5,555 nt of DNA from a virus. The notes under the pieces were generated by a model, which worked only from the letters and a program-made list of their open reading frames with translations, made no database searches and had not been told where the DNA came from. The position numbers were made by a program, and so were the translations under genes. Location: the UHGV virus genome UHGV-0338177; one strand, written 5' to 3'. This document shows, one piece after another, positions 1 to 5,555 of the stretch. Numbering within the stretch: the first letter of the stretch is position 1; each line of letters opens with the position of its first letter.

Positions 1-507
1 ATCGCCTATTTTCTTTAAAACATATTGAGAAACATAAGCCGCACACTTTCTCATACCACGAGAGTTCTCAACTTGTCTAAGTTTGATAAATCCATTATCC
101 CACTTTTGAGCAATAACATCACGGAAACTTTTATCAATGCCAAAAAGTAAAACATGATAATGAACGCGTTGTGTGCCGTTTTCGCCTCTCTCACCAGCAC
201 AGAAAAATTTAATTTTAGAATATCCAATAGAATCTAAGAACTTGCGAAAGCGCTTCATAAAAAGCTGAACATCAGAGTAATGAAATTCCATATCGTGATT
301 ATCTGATAATCGAGGCGCATAAGTTAAAGTAAGATGACAGACGGATGACCAATCGGTTGACTCCAAGGCCAAACGGTGAGACCATTGTCTCCCACGACGA
401 GCGCGACACAAAACACACTTATTGCAAGGGAAAATAGCATTATGAGCAACCGAAAAATAAGGCGATTGACAAATAAGCTTCTGAAGTTTGACAGGTGCGG
501 AGATCAT
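1..507 (-). CDS. VP4: Replication initiation protein VP4 (rolling-circle HUH endonuclease), N-terminal 169 codons. The ORF runs off the window at position 1 and probably continues at 5555 if the molecule is circular.
   Basis: My minus-strand translation from ATG 507..505 gives MISAPVKLQKLICQSPYFSVAHNAIFPCNKCVLCRARRGRQWSHRLALESTDWSSVCHLTLTYAPRLSDNHDMEFHYSDVQLFMKRFRKFLDSIGYSKIKFFCAGERGENGTQRVHYHVLLFGIDKSFRDVIAQKWDNGFIKLRQVENSRGMRKCAAYVSQYVLKKIGD. It contains RCR motif 1 (HLTLTY), motif 2 (HYHVLLF, the HUH motif) and motif 3 (YVSQYVLK, the same Y-x3-Y-x2-K spacing as the phiX174 gpA catalytic tyrosines YVAKYVNK). The N-terminal Cys-rich CxxC pattern and 'QLFMKRFRK' are typical of gokushovirus VP4. 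SD GGAGG lies 6 nt upstream (TAAGTGCGGAGGTTGTTGATG). The six-frame track missed this ORF because it has no stop inside the window. Confidence 0.9.
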   Translation of the reverse strand, partial: MISAPVKLQKLICQSPYFSVAHNAIFPCNKCVLCRARRGRQWSHRLALESTDWSSVCHLTLTYAPRLSDNHDMEFHYSDVQLFMKRFRKFLDSIGYSKIKFFCAGERGENGTQRVHYHVLLFGIDKSFRDVIAQKWDNGFIKLRQVENSRGMRKCAAYVSQYVLKKIGD

Positions 508-680
508 CAACAACCTCCGCACTTACCAAGGATAAGCCGAGCAAATGGAGAAGAAAAAATTACCGTCTTTTTCGACGAAGGCGTTTTTTTAATTTTCGTA
601 TAAGCCTTTTTATGTTTCGCCTCCTGCCACGTTTTCGAGTATGGTAAAAACCGAATGCCATTACGATTACCTCCTTTCAT
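507..680 (-). CDS. Small basic protein (57 aa). Putative DNA-binding/packaging protein, analogous to the gokushovirus ORF8/VP8 or the phiX J protein.
   Basis: ATG at 680..678 is preceded by GGAGA (GGAGAATAATTATG). Translation is MKGGNRNGIRFLPYSKTWQEAKHKKAYTKIKKTPSSKKTVIFSSPFARLILGKCGGC, which is Lys/Arg-rich. The stop TGA (509..507) overlaps the VP4 ATG (507..505) as TGATG, implying translational coupling. It starts 2 nt after the VP2 stop. Its position, immediately upstream of the Rep gene, matches the small basic DNA-binding gene of gokushoviruses. It falls below the length cutoff of the supplied ORF track. Confidence 0.5.
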   Translation of the reverse strand: MKGGNRNGIRFLPYSKTWQEAKHKKAYTKIKKTPSSKKTVIFSSPFARLILGKCGGC

Positions 681-682
681 AA

Positions 683-1588
683 TTATTCTCCAAATCCCAT
701 TTGCAAAGCTCTTTGATAAGCTTCTTCGCCAGCTTTTTGAATATCACTTTTATACTGCTTTCGTTGAACAGGAGACAAATTTTTGATGCGTGTCTTATCA
801 GCTAGCTTTTGTGTGGCACGTGGATTATAATCAAAAACCAGCATAGGAAATCCAGAGCTTTTAATATCCGCCAAATCATAAACAGAGCCATCAGCCAAAA
901 TAAGCCTATTCTTATAGACACGAGCACCAGCTACGCCAAGACCTTTATTCACAAGGGCTTCAATTATTTGAGTGCCTCCTTCGCTAAGAGAATCCATCCA
1001 AGACTGCTGAGCGTCTTTTTGTGTCAAAGTCAAGCCAAACTGAGAACCGTCAGCCGATAAATTCAAAATAGAATAAGGCGTATTTTCAACAGAAGTAAAA
1101 TCTTTCATTGAAAGAGCACCTAAAGACGACTTAGTCATTTTTGAAAAAGACGGAGCAGAGACAACAGATGAAGTCTTTGGCTTTTCAAGCGCTTTAATTT
1201 GAGCCTCTTTATATTTAGCTTCAGCATTATACATATTTGTCTGCGCTCTCATCATCTGACTTTGAGCGATAATTTGAGACATAGCAAGTCCAGCTTGCCC
1301 TACGGAATTAAGCGCATCACCAACTCCATTACCTCCAGCAGCTTGAAAAGAGGGGCTAAAACTCGCTGAATCTGCACCGAGACCATATATAGGATTAACT
1401 CCTGCACGCTTAGAATCACCAACACGCCAAGAAATACTATTTTGATAAAACTCTTTTTGTGCGTCGTAATTAGCTGCATTAGCTTTCTGCTGAGATCTAC
1501 GATTAGCCGAACCATTAAACCAACTTCCTAAACCACCAAATAAAGCGCTACCACCAGCAAATAATAAACTACCAGTCAAAGGATCCAT
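683..1588 (-). CDS. VP2: Minor capsid / DNA pilot protein VP2 (301 aa).
   Basis: The Gly-rich hydrophobic N-terminus (MDPLTGSLLFAGGSALFGGLGSWFNGS) is followed by a Gln/Asn/Ala-rich segment and the motif 'KRAGVNPIYGLGA'. This resembles the conserved 'AGLNP' region of gokushovirus VP2 pilot proteins, as does the Ala/Gln-rich coiled-coil-like middle. SD AGGAGA lies 4 nt upstream of the ATG (AGGAGATAATATG). The ATG is 1 nt after the stop of the upstream gene. Confidence 0.8.
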   Translation of the reverse strand: MDPLTGSLLFAGGSALFGGLGSWFNGSANRRSQQKANAANYDAQKEFYQNSISWRVGDSKRAGVNPIYGLGADSASFSPSFQAAGGNGVGDALNSVGQAGLAMSQIIAQSQMMRAQTNMYNAEAKYKEAQIKALEKPKTSSVVSAPSFSKMTKSSLGALSMKDFTSVENTPYSILNLSADGSQFGLTLTQKDAQQSWMDSLSEGGTQIIEALVNKGLGVAGARVYKNRLILADGSVYDLADIKSSGFPMLVFDYNPRATQKLADKTRIKNLSPVQRKQYKSDIQKAGEEAYQRALQMGFGE

Positions 1589-1589
1589 A

Positions 1590-2075
1590 TTATCTCCTAT
1601 TCTCTTTTTTACATTTTATAAATTTAGATATGTCGGTCCAGATGGCATTTTTAATTTTAAGACCTTTACCAGAAGTATTCCTCATAATCTCATCACGACG
1701 AACCGAACGAGACCGACATATCGACTTAGCAAACTTATCGAGTTTTTCACGCTCGGTAAGCTCTTGTGAAGTATTATACATTTTTTTGGTTAATGAAAAG
1801 CCTAAATTTAATTTTATTTTATCACGTAAAGAATTTAAGAACTTCGCGCGGCGTTTAGCCATATGATAAGAAACAAATTTACGAGGAGAGGAATGCCTAG
1901 TAACCTGTTGATAAAAATTTTTAAAAACAGGAGGAACTAAAAACATCTCAGGCTTTGATATTTTTCTCAAAGTCGTAATAGAACTTGAAACGATATTTTG
2001 GCGACTTCGTGGTTTTGAAGCACGCCTACGCCTCTTATTTCTAGCTTTTGAAAGGGATAAAAATCTTAAAACCAT
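1590..2075 (-). CDS. Highly basic 161-aa protein with a poly-Arg N-terminal region. Function unknown; candidate DNA-binding/condensing or scaffold-type virion protein.
   Basis: ATG 2075..2073 with SD AGGAG 5 nt upstream (CTAGGAGTTTCAATG). The protein MVLRFLSLSKARNKRRRRASKPRSRQN... is very rich in K/R throughout. It is tightly packed against VP2 (stop, 1 nt, start). I recognise no family motif. Confidence 0.55.
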   Translation of the reverse strand: MVLRFLSLSKARNKRRRRASKPRSRQNIVSSSITTLRKISKPEMFLVPPVFKNFYQQVTRHSSPRKFVSYHMAKRRAKFLNSLRDKIKLNLGFSLTKKMYNTSQELTEREKLDKFAKSICRSRSVRRDEIMRNTSGKGLKIKNAIWTDISKFIKCKKENRR

Positions 2076-2083
2076 TGAAACTC

Positions 2084-2101
2084 CTAGATGGTGTCATCTA
2101 G
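2084..2101. promoter_or_regulatory. Perfect 7-bp palindrome CTAGATG-GTGT-CATCTAG overlapping the SD of the 161-aa gene.
   Basis: Read directly: c2084..g2090 is the reverse complement of c2095..g2101, with a 4-nt loop. On the mRNA strand the stem ends ...CATCTAG|GAG, so the 3' arm covers the AG of the AGGAG SD. This fits a translational operator or protein-binding site. Confidence 0.4.
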
Positions 2102-2129
2102 CACATATTCATCAAGTCGGTGATATGTG

Positions 2130-2155
2130 CCGCAAAAATTTTACAATTTTTGCGG
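2130..2155. other. 11-bp perfect hairpin CCGCAAAAATT-TTAC-AATTTTTGCGG (GC clamp plus A5/T5 tract).
   Basis: Read directly: positions 2130..2140 are the reverse complement of 2145..2155, with a 4-nt loop. No flanking U-tract on either strand, so it is not a canonical intrinsic terminator. Confidence 0.6.
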
Positions 2156-2167
2156 AATAATGTCAAT

Positions 2168-2220
2168 GAAAAAACTTCGTTTTTTCTAAAAACTACCACA
2201 CCAAAACCGAGTTTTTAGAA
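2168..2220. other. Overlapping A/T-tract hairpins: GAAAAAAC-TTC-GTTTTTTC (2168..2186), and an 11-bp inverted repeat TTCTAAAAACT/AGTTTTTAGAA (2184..2194 and 2210..2220) with a 15-nt loop ACCACACCAAAACCG.
   Basis: Read directly; the arms are exact reverse complements. The two structures share bases, so they are alternative folds. Confidence 0.55.
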
Positions 2221-2278
2221 TTTCCAGCCTTAAAGGCGCTGAAATCGCAATAAATTTAAGGGGATTGTGTTACTTTAA

Positions 2279-2408
2279 GAGCGAGCCGCGTGCGTTGCAC
2301 ATAAAGCGTTCGTAAGGTGCGCTTTCAGCGCGATCCTTTCGCTCATCCAGCCGCGTCCTTGCGGCTGATTTGATGATGAGCGAACCCGTTTTTGTCAATA
2401 AAAACGGG
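2279..2408. other. GC-rich structured island in the intergenic region. It contains a small hairpin GCGCT-TTC-AGCGC (2319..2331), a compound hairpin (2338..2384) and an abutting hairpin CCCGTTTTT-GTCAAT-AAAAACGGG (2385..2408). In the compound hairpin the outer stem is TTCGCTCATC/GATGAGCGAA, the inner stem is CAGCCGC-GTCCTT-GCGGCTG, and there is a 7-nt bulge.
   Basis: Read directly. Hand-counted GC over about 110 nt (2279..2390) is roughly 59%, against a visibly AT-rich remainder of the genome. All stems are exact reverse complements. There are no flanking T-runs, so these are not classic terminators. The placement in the single large IGR parallels the complementary-strand origin / primosome-assembly hairpins of phiX174 and G4. 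Confidence 0.55.
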
Positions 2409-2409
2409 C

Positions 2410-2619
2410 TTATACGGGATTGTAGGGTAATTCTGGGAATAAAGAAGGTTGATCATCGATATATTCCCATTGAAATTTAAAAAAGAGTTCTTTGTCTGTT
2501 CGACAAGAACGAATAACTGCCTCAGTAAAAGAGGAATCTCCAGTCATCTCGTAAGGTTTCAACTTATAACTATGCCAGAGCTTACGCCAAGTCTTATAAT
2601 CTAAATCCCAAAGTATCAT
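2410..2619 (-). CDS. Hypothetical 69-aa Trp/Tyr/Phe-rich protein. The track gives an 89-aa version from an alternative GTG start at 2679.
   Basis: ATG 2619..2617 overlaps the TGA stop of the upstream 28-aa ORF as ATGA. Translation is MILWDLDYKTWRKLWHSYKLKPYEMTGDSSFTEAVIRSCRTDKELFFKFQWEYIDDQPSLFPELPYNPV. The stop TAA at 2412..2410 lies 1 nt before the 2408..2385 hairpin. I recognise no family. Confidence 0.4.
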   Translation of the reverse strand: MILWDLDYKTWRKLWHSYKLKPYEMTGDSSFTEAVIRSCRTDKELFFKFQWEYIDDQPSLFPELPYNPV

Positions 2620-2702
2620 ATAAGACCCTTGATGAGTTCCCAAATAGCATTGACAGCGCCAGTTAAAGCCGCGATCCACAAGCCTATGCGTTCCTTATTC
2701 AT
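2616..2702 (-). CDS. 28-aa hydrophobic peptide, probably a single-pass membrane peptide. Candidate lysis or accessory peptide.
   Basis: Strong SD AAAGGAGGTG 8 nt upstream of ATG 2702..2700 (GGATGAAAGGAGGTGATTATTATG), which sits 21 nt after the acidic gene's TAA. Translation is MNKERIGLWIAALTGAVNAIWELIKGLI: a charged N-terminus followed by about 19 hydrophobic residues. The stop TGA overlaps the ATG of the downstream 69-aa ORF (ATGA). It is too short for the supplied ORF track. Confidence 0.4.
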   Translation of the reverse strand: MNKERIGLWIAALTGAVNAIWELIKGLI

Positions 2703-2723
2703 AATAATCACCTCCTTTCATCC

Positions 2724-3188
2724 TTATTCAGTTCCTTTATCAGACGAATCTGATTTGACACCCACTTCTCGCGATTCACTCTCTTTGTGTGAGATTGTAT
2801 CGCCTTTATCCGAGTTTTTAGACTCGGACGCCAAAATACGAGATTCTTTGTCTCTATCGTAGTATTTACCTCTTCGATCGACGGTATCTCTATCTTTATC
2901 AACATAATACTCCTCCTCATCAAAATCGTCATCAATATACTCAACGCTTTCGTAGTCATATACACCACCACCGTGAAGTGTTTGAAACTCTTCATAAGTC
3001 ATCGAACCACGATTTATGCGGTCTAAAGCAGATGAAAGAGTATCGGGCGAATGAACGATATCGACAATACTCTTAGGGTCTAAATCCTCAGTAACGATAG
3101 GGCGAGGCGCAAAACAACCAGTGCGACCAACAGTAGCTTGAATTTCGAACAAGCCCTCAGCTTGTTTTTTCGTAATCTTTGATGGCAT
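2724..3188 (-). CDS. 154-aa acidic protein with an Asp/Glu/Tyr/Ser-rich low-complexity C-terminal tail. Candidate scaffolding-type (VP3-like) or DNA-mimic protein.
   Basis: ATG 3188..3186 with SD AAGGAG 9 nt upstream, 17 nt after the VP1 stop. The C-terminal half is ...YDYESVEYIDDDFDEEEYYVDKDRDTVDRRGKYYDRDKESRILASESKNSDKGDTISHKESESREVGVKSDSSDKGTE. It sits immediately downstream of VP1, where gokushoviruses place VP2/VP3, but it carries no recognisable VP3 motif. Confidence 0.55.
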   Translation of the reverse strand: MPSKITKKQAEGLFEIQATVGRTGCFAPRPIVTEDLDPKSIVDIVHSPDTLSSALDRINRGSMTYEEFQTLHGGGVYDYESVEYIDDDFDEEEYYVDKDRDTVDRRGKYYDRDKESRILASESKNSDKGDTISHKESESREVGVKSDSSDKGTE

Positions 3189-3207
3189 AATATGTAACTC
3201 CTTATCT

Positions 3208-5022
3208 TTATTTCAAAATATTTTTAGAACGCTTAGGAATTGGCCGATACGCAACAATGTTGTTTTGTAGCATTACGAGAAAAGCAGGTAAAGAAGAATC
3301 CGTAATAGCGAAAATGTCCTTACGAGGGTTCATTCTCATAAAAGAAGCATTTAAAACAGGAGCTTCAGCAAATTGTCGGCCCAAGTGCCAGAACGATAGG
3401 TCAGTTCTAAAATTTCCCGATAGTCTGCTCTCTTGGTGTCTATATTCGTTATAATTTCCATTGAGAGCATATCCAAATACCTTGTCCTTATTTGATTTGG
3501 TAGCATAAAGTTCTTGTTGAAAAATCTCTTGTGCACCGATGTTAGAAAATTCGTAAGTAAAATAGTCAAATCTACTTCGTTTAAGCCACGCTCTATCGAT
3601 ACCTTGAGTATAGATCGTTTCTGGCCGAATAGACGCGAGACCAATAATAATACCATGCTCAGGGCAAAAGTATTTAATGCGTCTCTGCCGAGCTTGTCCG
3701 ATTCCCATACCAGCCATACTTCCAAGTGGGGTTTGTCCTTGTGCGCCAGGACTAGTTTGTATGACCTCACTAATTTGTAATGGCGATTTATTGCCGCCGA
3801 GATACTCACTTTTGTTGAGTCGGCTATCACGAGGACGGACTCCGAACTCCATACGACAATAATCCTCATATTCTGCTCCATATTTCAAACTCCTTTCGTT
3901 GAAACGCTGATACGCAGAGGCAACACGTAAATCGCGTATATTGATAGCGCCCGCATTTTGATAATTTTGATTTATTGTGAATTCTAAATCATTTATGTTA
4001 AGGTTTTTTATTTGTGATACTTCTTTTACATAAGTAATTGTGTTGTTATTTCGCCTCATGCAGCTGGTGATTGGCGAAATATTTAAATCAATGTTACCTT
4101 TTAAGTATGGTGCGTTTGAATAATTCAACGGGTCTTTAAATTCGATTTTAGTAATAGGCACATAAAATTCAAAATTTGTATTTACAGGGCAAGTCGTAGA
4201 ATCTCCAAAATTTCCGTTTATTCCTCCTTCCGTTATTATTATTCTTATATATCCTTCCGTTATTCCCAACGCGATATTATTACTTATATCTATGCTTCTT
4301 ACACTCGTTTTCAGGCTATCTTGGCCTTTTTGAAGAGTGTTCGGCTCTAATATGATAAGTCCTAATTCTGTTGTCGTTGGTTTTATATTTGTCGGCGTTC
4401 CCGTTGTGTAGGTCGGTTTATAAATAGCGTATCCGCTGGTGTTTTGAGACGACGGAATTACTGGGACACTAACTTGAGCACCGCGTTGGGTAAATGGCTT
4501 CGCCTTTGTGAAGTAATCACGCTTCCAATGGACAGGGAGAAGATCCAAAGGCGTGGTAGTATCAACACCGTCAGAAGTCGAAAATTCAATATCTGCTTCA
4601 ATATCCTCAATTTTGTAATGGTCATTCCAAATTTTGCACATAGCACGAAAAGGCATAGCAGAAACTTCGATACCACCTTGTTTAATAGGAAAACCGAAAT
4701 AATCGGAAAGAGTGTTAGCTTCCCAACCATTTTCAGGCGATTTAACAACAGGATACGAAGGATTAGAAAGACCATCATCACCACCTGTAATAAATTCAGT
4801 CCAATTGTCCCATAATATGCGATACGGCACAAAATAGTATTGCGTAACCCAGTTTATCTGTGAAATCACAGGGGCAACCATAGGTTGTGCACGGAAAATA
4901 GCTTGGTTGGAGATACGAAAAATATCACCGGGCAAGCAATCCTGTATATAAAATGGGATAAGTTTGCCCATCTCCATGGTAGTATGATGTCTATGCGACA
5001 GATTAAATTTACTACGTTTCAT
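3208..5022 (-). CDS. VP1: Major capsid protein VP1 (F-protein family), 604 aa.
   Basis: The N-terminus MKRSKFNLSHRHHTTMEMGKLIPFYIQDCLPGDIF matches the conserved gokushovirus VP1 start (R-S-x-F-x-L-S-H ... M-G-x-L-x-P). The protein is long, with a Thr/Asn/Ile-rich hypervariable insertion (about residues 190-370) as in gokushovirus 'mushroom' loops. Excellent SD AAGGAGG 6 nt upstream of ATG 5022..5020. Confidence 0.95.
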   Translation of the reverse strand: MKRSKFNLSHRHHTTMEMGKLIPFYIQDCLPGDIFRISNQAIFRAQPMVAPVISQINWVTQYYFVPYRILWDNWTEFITGGDDGLSNPSYPVVKSPENGWEANTLSDYFGFPIKQGGIEVSAMPFRAMCKIWNDHYKIEDIEADIEFSTSDGVDTTTPLDLLPVHWKRDYFTKAKPFTQRGAQVSVPVIPSSQNTSGYAIYKPTYTTGTPTNIKPTTTELGLIILEPNTLQKGQDSLKTSVRSIDISNNIALGITEGYIRIIITEGGINGNFGDSTTCPVNTNFEFYVPITKIEFKDPLNYSNAPYLKGNIDLNISPITSCMRRNNNTITYVKEVSQIKNLNINDLEFTINQNYQNAGAINIRDLRVASAYQRFNERSLKYGAEYEDYCRMEFGVRPRDSRLNKSEYLGGNKSPLQISEVIQTSPGAQGQTPLGSMAGMGIGQARQRRIKYFCPEHGIIIGLASIRPETIYTQGIDRAWLKRSRFDYFTYEFSNIGAQEIFQQELYATKSNKDKVFGYALNGNYNEYRHQESRLSGNFRTDLSFWHLGRQFAEAPVLNASFMRMNPRKDIFAITDSSLPAFLVMLQNNIVAYRPIPKRSKNILK

Positions 5023-5048
5023 AAGGAACCTCCTTAATTTTTAGAAAA

Positions 5049-5555
5049 TTATAGCACTTTTTGGTAAATATTTGCAAAAAAACCACGATTATTTTTCATC
5101 TGTCTTAATTCAACTTGACGAGAATAAGTGTCAAACTTGGATTTACCGACAAATTCAACGGCACTTTGTATATGTCGCAAATAATCAAAATATAAAAAAT
5201 AATCAACAGTATTAGTCCAATCAATAACAGCTTCTGTTCCGTAGGGTCCAACTAACGAATACCTAGGATATAGAGGACGAAAAACGTTCGTTGAAAAAGT
5301 CTCATAAGTCGTTAAAATCTCCTCTAAAAACTCCTGTGTCTTAGCCTTCCAACGAGATTTCAACTCTTCGGAAATTCCTAATAGTTCAGCAATTTTCGTT
5401 TTAATATATCTATCAAGCCTCAAAACCTCACCTTGCCAAACAACTGGCTGAAAATCACCAAATTCTTGATAGTGAGCTAAAAAAGTTTCTTTAAATAATC
5501 GAATAGCAGCGCGAAGGCCTATGCCACGAGAACAGTGTTGAATTCCGTCTTTTCT
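5049..5555 (-). CDS. VP4: Replication initiation protein VP4, C-terminal 168 codons. The ORF is open to the window edge at 5555 and is in frame with the 1..507 part if the molecule is circular.
   Basis: My translation from 5555 is RKDGIQHCSRGIGLRAAIRLFKETFLAHYQEFGDFQPVVWQGEV(L)RLDRYIKTKIAELLGISEELKSRWKAKTQEFLEEILTTYETFSTNVFRPLYPRYSLVGPYGTEAVIDWTNTVDYFLYFDYLRHIQSAVEFVGKSKFDTYSRQVELRQMKNNRGFFANIYQKVL*. The track's 'M' at 5423 is actually a TTG codon; the frame stays open upstream to the window end. Codon phase at 5555 matches codon phase at 1. The 'SRGIG' segment after the catalytic Tyr motif is typical of microvirus Reps. Stop TAA at 5051..5049, 26 nt before the VP1 ATG. Confidence 0.7.
   Translation of the reverse strand, partial: RKDGIQHCSRGIGLRAAIRLFKETFLAHYQEFGDFQPVVWQGEVLRLDRYIKTKIAELLGISEELKSRWKAKTQEFLEEILTTYETFSTNVFRPLYPRYSLVGPYGTEAVIDWTNTVDYFLYFDYLRHIQSAVEFVGKSKFDTYSRQVELRQMKNNRGFFANIYQKVL

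Follow-up and report, generated by a model that had tools for sequence, protein, structure and literature searches.

The 5,555-nucleotide (nt) stretch of UHGV virus genome UHGV-0338177 analyzed here, which we refer to as the window, is presented on the strand complementary to its coding strand. All of its convincing open reading frames (ORFs) lie on the minus strand, and the single gap of more than 26 nt between them is the intergenic region (IGR), consistent with the preliminary description of this DNA, in which all genes sat on one strand with one IGR. When the two ends of the window were joined, the gene order round the circle was Rep (the replication initiator, VP4), VP1, the acidic p154, p28, p69, the IGR, the basic p161, VP2, the overlapping pair p57/p33, and Rep again (Table 1). 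This gene set exceeds that assumed initially, as it includes small and overlapping genes. Based on the evidence below, we are highly confident that the window is the genome of a microvirus (Microviridae) that is uncultivated, a 5,555-nt circle given at one unit length and opened at an arbitrary point inside Rep.

Table 1. Genes and other features of the 5,555-nt window (aa, amino acids; pI, isoelectric point).
Feature	Position	Strand	Description
Rep (VP4-like), N-terminal 169 codons	1..507	-	ATG at 507..505; HUH motifs HLTLTY, HYHVLLF and YVSQYVLK
Rep, C-terminal 168 codons and stop	5049..5555	-	In-phase continuation of 507..1; stop at 5051..5049
VP1, major capsid protein, 604 aa	3208..5022	-	Gokushovirus-type, F-protein fold family; Pfam, PHROG and PDB matches
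Candidate overprinted gene, 176 codons	3351..3881	-	+1 frame inside VP1; GAAAGGAG 8 nt ahead of ATG
p154	2724..3188	-	N-terminal ~75 aa conserved, then acidic tail; pI 4.6; clade-specific
p28	2616..2702	-	28-aa hydrophobic peptide MNKERIGLWIAALTGAVNAIWELIKGLI; strong Shine-Dalgarno AAAGGAGGTGA
p69	2410..2619	-	Accessory ORF; ATGA overlap with p28
IGR, 334 nt	2076..2409	.	Sole IGR; strongly structured
Promoter-like TTGACA-17 nt-TAAAAT	2138..2166	-	11/12 matches; conserved in close relatives
Hairpin A	2155..2130	-	Loop and 3' arm include the -10 box
Hairpin B	2129..2102	-	ACTTGAT in loop at 2117..2111
Hairpin C	2101..2084	-	Abuts AGGAG Shine-Dalgarno of p161
p161	1590..2075	-	Very basic, pI 11.6, 45 K+R; C-terminal motif RRDEIMR..GKGLKIKNA.W conserved; clade-specific
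VP2-like DNA pilot protein, 301 aa	683..1588	-	N-terminal Gly-rich hydrophobic segment; PHROG and blastp matches
p57	507..680	-	Lys-rich, 57 aa; ends RLILGKCGGC
p33	560..661	-	Arg-rich, 33 aa, MAFGFYHTRKRGRRR..., pI 12.0; overlaps p57 in other frame; Shine-Dalgarno AAAGGAGGT

The Rep frame that opens at 507 reached position 1 in phase after 169 stop-free codons, and the minus-strand frame that enters at 5555 was open in the matching phase for a further 168 codons, with its stop 26 nt ahead of the VP1 ATG at 5022. The joined protein is 337 residues (169 + 168 codons), as had been proposed. Its N-terminal half starts MISAPVKLQK and ends YVLKKIGD, and its C-terminal half starts RKDGIQHCSRGIG and ends ANIYQKVL. 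The Rep ATG overlaps the stop codon of p57 by 1 nt and has a GGAGG Shine-Dalgarno sequence 7 nt upstream. Of the motifs named for Rep in the preliminary description, HUH and YxxxYxxK were both present; the third, FLTLT, does not occur literally and reads HLTLT. Its remaining statements on coordinates, phase and lengths were all correct.

Homologs aligned to the joined Rep across the junction between residues 169 and 170. The PHROG family phrog_942 (replication initiation protein) covered residues 21-244 (E = 3e-42), and Pfam PF23343 (REP_ORF2-G2P) matched residues 57-166 of the N-terminal part (E = 1.4e-18), with all three HUH motifs inside the match. A tblastn search with Rep against GenBank phage records matched 2,847 microvirus records, among which single alignments that reached residues 10-318 and 11-328 fell on features labelled replication initiator protein. 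Rep was also collinear with the uninterrupted Rep ORF of a related genome, L005, from residue 1 to 337 at 80% identity with one gap, and was 81% identical over residues 1-332 to the ORF of a second relative, L003.

The exact VP1 sequence of the window was identified on two SPAdes contigs in the European Nucleotide Archive that came from different samples, L001 (ERZ1024471 NODE_219, assembly coverage 39,328) and L002 (ERZ1024441 NODE_432, coverage 7.7). Each contig was 5,610 nt, or 5,555 nt plus a 55-nt terminal direct repeat whose copies matched exactly, as is usual for circles assembled at k = 55. The breakpoints of the two contigs differed, although both were inside VP2, and after trimming and rotation each matched the reverse-complemented window without a mismatch over 5,555 nt. 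On both contigs Rep was called as a single 337-aa gene. In addition, a linear contig of 3,481 nt from a third sample (L103, ERZ1024473) crossed the 5555/1 junction, extending from window position 1880 down via 1/5555 to 3955 with only one mismatch. Since two independent contigs from different samples, with different breakpoints, gave the identical circle, we consider circularity settled: the genome is circular and complete, and Rep is intact across the window ends. The junction-crossing alignments and the permuted contigs with terminal repeats thus bear out the initial proposal of a complete circular microvirus genome, and the source contigs correspond to the circle itself, with no prophage or larger context found.

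Two other explanations for the continuity of Rep were weighed. The first is an assembly artifact, in which the window would be a chimera of two microviruses or the product of false circularization on an internal repeat. Sample ERZ1024471 also contains a related microvirus, L090 (NODE_230), whose VP1 is 56% identical to that of the window, indicating a mixed population in which a chimera might arise. However, we regard an artifact as very improbable because the assemblies of two samples produced the identical 5,555-nt circle from different breakpoints, the third sample agreed with it over its full 3,481 nt apart from the one mismatch, no repeat of at least 31 nt occurs inside the window, and all genes were intact and collinear with those of relatives at 69-85% VP1 identity. 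Less probable still is that the window is a piece of a prophage or larger replicon, with the phase match at its ends coincidental or due to a tandem duplication: temperate microviruses exist (PMC9239249, PMC3091885), yet every contig with the VP1 of the window was of unit length plus a k-mer repeat, none of about 15 related contigs carried flanking host genes, no integrase was detected (dif-like sites were not looked for), and no relative turned up among 185,579 representative bacterial genomes, in scans that took one genome per bacterial and archaeal species and used exact patterns from VP1 peptides and a conserved IGR block. Together, the permuted contigs, the junction-crossing contig, the lack of host flanks and the scans without matches make both of these explanations very unlikely.

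Some considerations weigh against our interpretation of the window as a complete microvirus genome with the functions given here. The evidence for circularity consists of assembly signatures and permuted contigs, not of junction-spanning reads, and scans of genome collections that are limited to a few exact patterns could miss a diverged prophage. Sequence cannot reveal whether the genome is single-stranded or which strand is packaged. Lastly, the functional map is partly positional, as the accessory proteins have no detectable homologs of known function.

On every feature that can be read from its sequence, the complete circular genome belongs to a member of the Microviridae. The 5,555-nt circle is within the size range of the family, about 3.5-8.3 kb (PMC9239249), and it encodes an HUH initiator carrying motifs I, II (HUH) and III (YxxxY), an F/VP1-type major capsid protein and a DNA pilot protein (VP2/H). 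VP1 matched Pfam Phage_F (PF02305; E = 9.3e-90) and phrog_514 (E = 3.2e-138), and among solved capsids it matched 8des_A (E = 1e-70), 9cgm_A (E = 5e-50) and the phiX-type F protein 9k3n_F (E = 1.6e-4). VP2 had no Pfam match and was identified by phrog_8693 (E = 1.1e-8), phrog_11693 (E = 3.8e-8) and, by blastp, a chicken microvirus DNA pilot protein (E = 4.7e-20). The plus-strand ORFs of 65-123 aa had no family match, and neither a tRNA nor a transfer-messenger RNA was found in the window. The sole Rfam match at E <= 1, to RUF4, was inside the p161 coding sequence and, at 23.5 bits (E = 0.22) where the gathering score is 55, was attributed to chance. Strong ribosome-binding sites of the AGGAG/GGAGG type precede all genes, which argues that the host relies on Shine-Dalgarno sites and is therefore probably not a member of the Bacteroidota.

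We identified 13 related unit-length genomes in which VP1 was 47-85% identical to that of the window, with the same gene order and unit sizes of about 5.3-5.6 kb. Terminal repeats of 26-479 nt were trimmed from these genomes, most of which carry repeats of the type that assemblers produce. Metagenome assembly GCA_001292545.1 alone yielded five or more full-length contigs belonging to the clade (CYGL01: L003, L004, L093, L099 and L106), which, together with the presence of both the window genome and L090 in ERZ1024471, indicates that related microviruses of the clade co-circulate in the same samples. No relatives were found in IMG/VR with the Rep protein, and a search of that collection by VP1 profile returned relatives at 43% identity or less only. 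In nucleotide comparisons, matches to any one GenBank phage record covered at most 11% of the window. The identities of VP1, Rep and VP2 are firm, as is the conservation within the clade of the gene order, of the small genes and of the hairpins considered next.

The IGR is strongly structured. When the gene-sense strand was folded as single-stranded DNA, the IGR had a predicted energy of -73.6 kcal/mol, compared with -42.4 kcal/mol for shuffled sequences (z = -7.67). Within the clade, no other non-coding sequence is as conserved as its 3' 90 nt, in which the promoter-like site and three hairpins are located. We infer that the promoter-like site in the IGR starts one genome-length transcript. 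The hairpins, A to C, follow one another over 2155..2084, the first of them taking in the -10 box of this site. On six distinct sequences, 95.8% of the cells of these hairpins were paired, compared with 31-51% in controls with slid partners. Five pairs had changed on both sides, and none of 500 shuffles reached the observed covariation. As only six related sequences contribute, we consider the covariation supportive, not conclusive. The hairpins are candidates for a complementary-strand origin, a function proposed for hairpins in other microviruses (PMC9865509), and/or for an element of the 5' untranslated region. The IGR as a whole would then combine the end and the start of the genome-length transcript with the complementary-strand origin.

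The 5' half of the IGR is GC-rich, and its hairpins (about 2408..2182) are shared with one relative, L107 (positions 744-1100), with compensatory changes such as CAGCCGC/GCGGCTG to CAGCAGC/GCTGCTG. At the place of this GC-rich half, most relatives carry a canonical terminator with a GC stem followed by T8. The GC-rich half had no match in phage or plasmid collections by blastn, or in Rfam.

The loop of hairpin B contains ACTTGAT, the heptamer at the phiX174 nick site. In six genomes it occurs 41 nt ahead of the p161 start. The heptamer is found once in the window, against 0.9 occurrences expected by chance, so its count is not significant, and we consider it a candidate Rep nick site as a positional lead only.

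A second site of this kind is present within the Rep gene. The sequence CTTGATAGATATATTAA (5400-5417, minus strand; codons for RLDRYIK) resembles the phiX174 origin core CTTGATATTAATAA, and CTTGATAGATAT is found at 5417..5406 (minus strand), within the same stretch. L003 and L005 have the site at the corresponding position, and L089 has a further diverged version of it. This site inside Rep is another candidate for the origin of the viral strand.

Among the small genes, p28 has clear signs of selection. The gene and its strong ribosome-binding site were present in 11 of the 11 genomes examined. Compared with L003, 15 of 24 codons differed synonymously and two non-synonymously, which indicates that p28 is a real coding gene under purifying selection, even though it was overlooked by the gene caller on the window's own contigs. 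The peptide has a hydrophobic core (Kyte-Doolittle 1.55 over 17 residues), which suggests that it is a membrane peptide, and as a guess it could have a role in lysis. The adjoining p69 was conserved in 5 of the 10 other fully tabulated genomes and absent from L003, L004, L091, L094 and L107; L089 has an unrelated 62-aa ORF at this position. Because p69 is kept in some genomes and deleted in others, we regard it as accessory. An 89-aa ORF with a GTG start (2679..2410) was considered as another form of p69 and is unlikely, as it has no Shine-Dalgarno sequence.

Upstream of Rep, p57 and p33 occupy overlapping frames. The C-terminal motif of p57 is kept among relatives, with substitutions mostly at third codon positions, and p33 is found with a ribosome-binding site of its own in 9 of the 11 genomes. 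From these patterns both look to be coding. The composition and position of p33 suggest that it may be a DNA-packaging peptide like J or ORF8. A programmed -1 frameshift that fuses p33 to the C-terminus of p57 was also considered, as the window has a perfect A_AAA_AAA slippery run. However, L003, L005, L007 and L089 lack the run of A, and because the slippery run is not conserved, two overlapping ORFs are preferred. A 30-nt direct repeat (659-688 and 2700-2729, 80% identical) corresponds to the ATGAAAGGAGGT ribosome-binding context shared by p33/p57 and p28. On account of this shared context, its interpretation as the repeat of a mobile element was ruled out.

Homologs of p154 and p161 were confined to the clade (32 and 17 clusters among 5.8 billion), none of them with a Pfam domain, and neither protein had an informative Pfam or PHROG match even at E <= 10. 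Comparison by hhalign of the p154 and p161 profiles with VP2, VP3, VP5 and ORF8 of Chp2 and phiMH2K gave probabilities of 0.9% or less. Weak profile matches (E = 0.007 and 0.03) were obtained to the two hypothetical proteins that Chicken microvirus mg8_102 encodes in syntenic positions. AlphaFold2 models built from the clade alignments were of low confidence, with a mean predicted local distance difference test (pLDDT) of 57.5 and a predicted template modeling score (pTM) of 0.19 for p154, and 62.0 and 0.23 for p161, too poor for a fold search. Based on position and composition, we infer that p154 may be an internal scaffold-like protein, and p161 an internal, DNA-associated protein. A VP3-like gene downstream of VP1 has been proposed in other microviruses (PMC3394797). 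For p69, p28, p57, p33 and the ORF within VP1 considered next, searches of Pfam and PHROGs and with hhalign returned nothing informative.

A long ORF in the +1 frame of VP1 is a candidate for an overprinted gene. It was open at the same place, over 172-181 codons, in all seven genomes whose VP1 was at least 69% identical to that of the window, and closed in seven more distant genomes, where the longest alternative-frame stretches, where measured, were 27-109 codons. Shuffling of synonymous codons rarely produced a +1 ORF of the observed length (P = 0.0004 for the window, < 0.0002 for L003 and 0.03-0.07 for three others). Within the ORF region there were no +1 stops, compared with 5.4-8.8 expected, and the rest of VP1 showed no such depletion. 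Synonymous variability of VP1 at invariant residues was 0.32 inside the ORF and 0.49 outside it, and the +1-frame protein was slightly more conserved than a null built by redrawing codons (P about 0.002). In addition, the Shine-Dalgarno sequence and ATG of the ORF are built from the rare codon AGG (Arg) together with AGY (Ser) and TAT (Tyr) codons in the VP1 segment ERSLKYG, and this choice of codons is restricted to the genomes that bear the ORF.

Two considerations count against the +1 ORF being a gene. Its content of leucine, arginine and serine is 31-33%, in the range described for non-coding frames (PMC9865509), and the seven genomes that bear it form one lineage, so that shared ancestry inflates every count. 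On balance we think it rather doubtful, though possible, that the ORF is a real and recently evolved overprinted gene of this subclade; if so, it could encode a membrane or lysis protein in the manner of phiX174 E, which lies inside D. The ORF, together with p28, would then provide a first handle on host lysis by gokushovirus-type phages.

These features can be arranged into a putative infection cycle. If the virus resembles the microviruses that have been studied, it would package the gene-sense strand, the minus strand of the window. Once this strand has entered the cell, its complement would be synthesized by host enzymes, with priming probably on the hairpin-rich IGR, and transcription would proceed from the promoter-like site in the IGR through p161, VP2, p57/p33, Rep, VP1, p154, p28 and p69. 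Rolling-circle replication would be driven by the 337-aa HUH Rep, which would nick the viral strand. Sixty copies of VP1 would form a T=1 capsid, in which VP2 would act as the DNA pilot and the Arg-rich peptide would be packaged with the DNA.

As a genome, the window is ordinary and joins tens of thousands of other complete microviruses. It is of value as a verified reference, closed correctly, for a clade with genomes of about 5.3-5.6 kb that is found in several public metagenome assemblies, and whose genes include some that automatic callers missed or left unnamed, specifically the putative 28-aa membrane peptide, the overlapping pair of basic ORFs and possibly the overprinted ORF in VP1. 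To our knowledge, lysis and replication origins are still poorly understood outside the phiX174-type phages. The small genes, the overprinted ORF and the covarying IGR hairpins are testable candidates for these functions and should be useful to those annotating microviruses.

None of the annotated relatives of the lineage exceeds 44% VP1 identity. The best annotated match was Chicken microvirus mg8_102 (MN379650), with identities of 44% for full-length VP1, 31% for Rep and 37% for the N-terminal half of VP2. This virus and unclassified gut microviruses (bajarodmic, Dipodfec, and pig and fox Microviridae sp.) share a layout of VP1, two hypothetical ORFs, DNA pilot and Rep. Their genomes are smaller (4.7-4.9 kb, against 5,555 nt here), have no annotated equivalents of p28 and p69 or of a large structured IGR, and are similar to the window at the nucleotide level in VP1 only (68-72%).

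Compared with the phiX174-type phages (Bullavirinae), the genome has neither the G spike nor the D scaffold, its Rep of 337 aa is not a long A protein, and its capsid protein matched that of a phiX-type phage only marginally (9k3n_F, above). It shares with them an HUH Rep with two catalytic tyrosines and the same replication logic, as well as the capsid fold family, a putative Arg/Lys-rich packaging peptide and putative overprinted genes, of which phiX174 E in the +1 frame of D is an established example (see also PMC9865509).

The window was initially described as gokushovirus-like. The capsid type and the VP4-VP1-VP2 core order support this description in a broad sense only, and membership in Gokushovirinae as the ICTV defines this subfamily is not established. 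We consider it an even call whether this complete microvirus instead belongs to a separate clade of subfamily or family level within the gokushovirus-type suborder. VP1 was only 30-34% identical to that of Chp2 and phiMH2K and 25-27% to that of SpV4, in two blocks. No homolog of VP3 (Pfam Chlamy_scaf) or VP5 was detected in Pfam or PHROGs at E <= 10 or by hhalign, although functional analogues are possible. Chp2 and phiMH2K have the order VP1-VP2-VP3, whereas here the order is VP1-p154-p28-p69-IGR-p161-VP2, such that three ORFs and the IGR separate VP1 from VP2, and p154, p28, p69 and p161 are extra conserved genes. The nearest annotated relatives are themselves unclassified, and they are not among Families 1, 2 and 10-19 and at least part of Gokushovirinae A in Table S1 of PMC9239249, the portion considered here. 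Conversely, the best matches among solved structures were gokushovirus-type capsids, and VP1 was 31-32% identical to that of two genomes labelled Family3_GokushovirinaeA, near the 30% family threshold of PMC9239249.

In this broad sense, the genome has several features of the gokushovirus type. Like the Gokushovirinae references (Chlamydia phage Chp2, AJ270057; Bdellovibrio phage phiMH2K, AF306496; capsids 8des and 9cgm), it is circular, with its genes on one strand, and close to the typical size of about 4.5-5.5 kb, and no family of major spike (G) or external scaffold (D) proteins is represented among its ORFs. The VP1 protein has conserved N- and C-terminal blocks around a variable insertion, and its alignments to the references fall into two blocks, about residues 1-188 and 325-596, with the variable part between them. 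Rep is of similar length (about 335 aa) and carries the HUH motifs, and a small, basic, putatively DNA-binding peptide is encoded upstream of it. Finally, the genome has the core order VP4-VP1-VP2 of the Gokushovirinae, an order reported for nearly all microviruses other than Pichovirinae (PMC3394797, PMC9239249).

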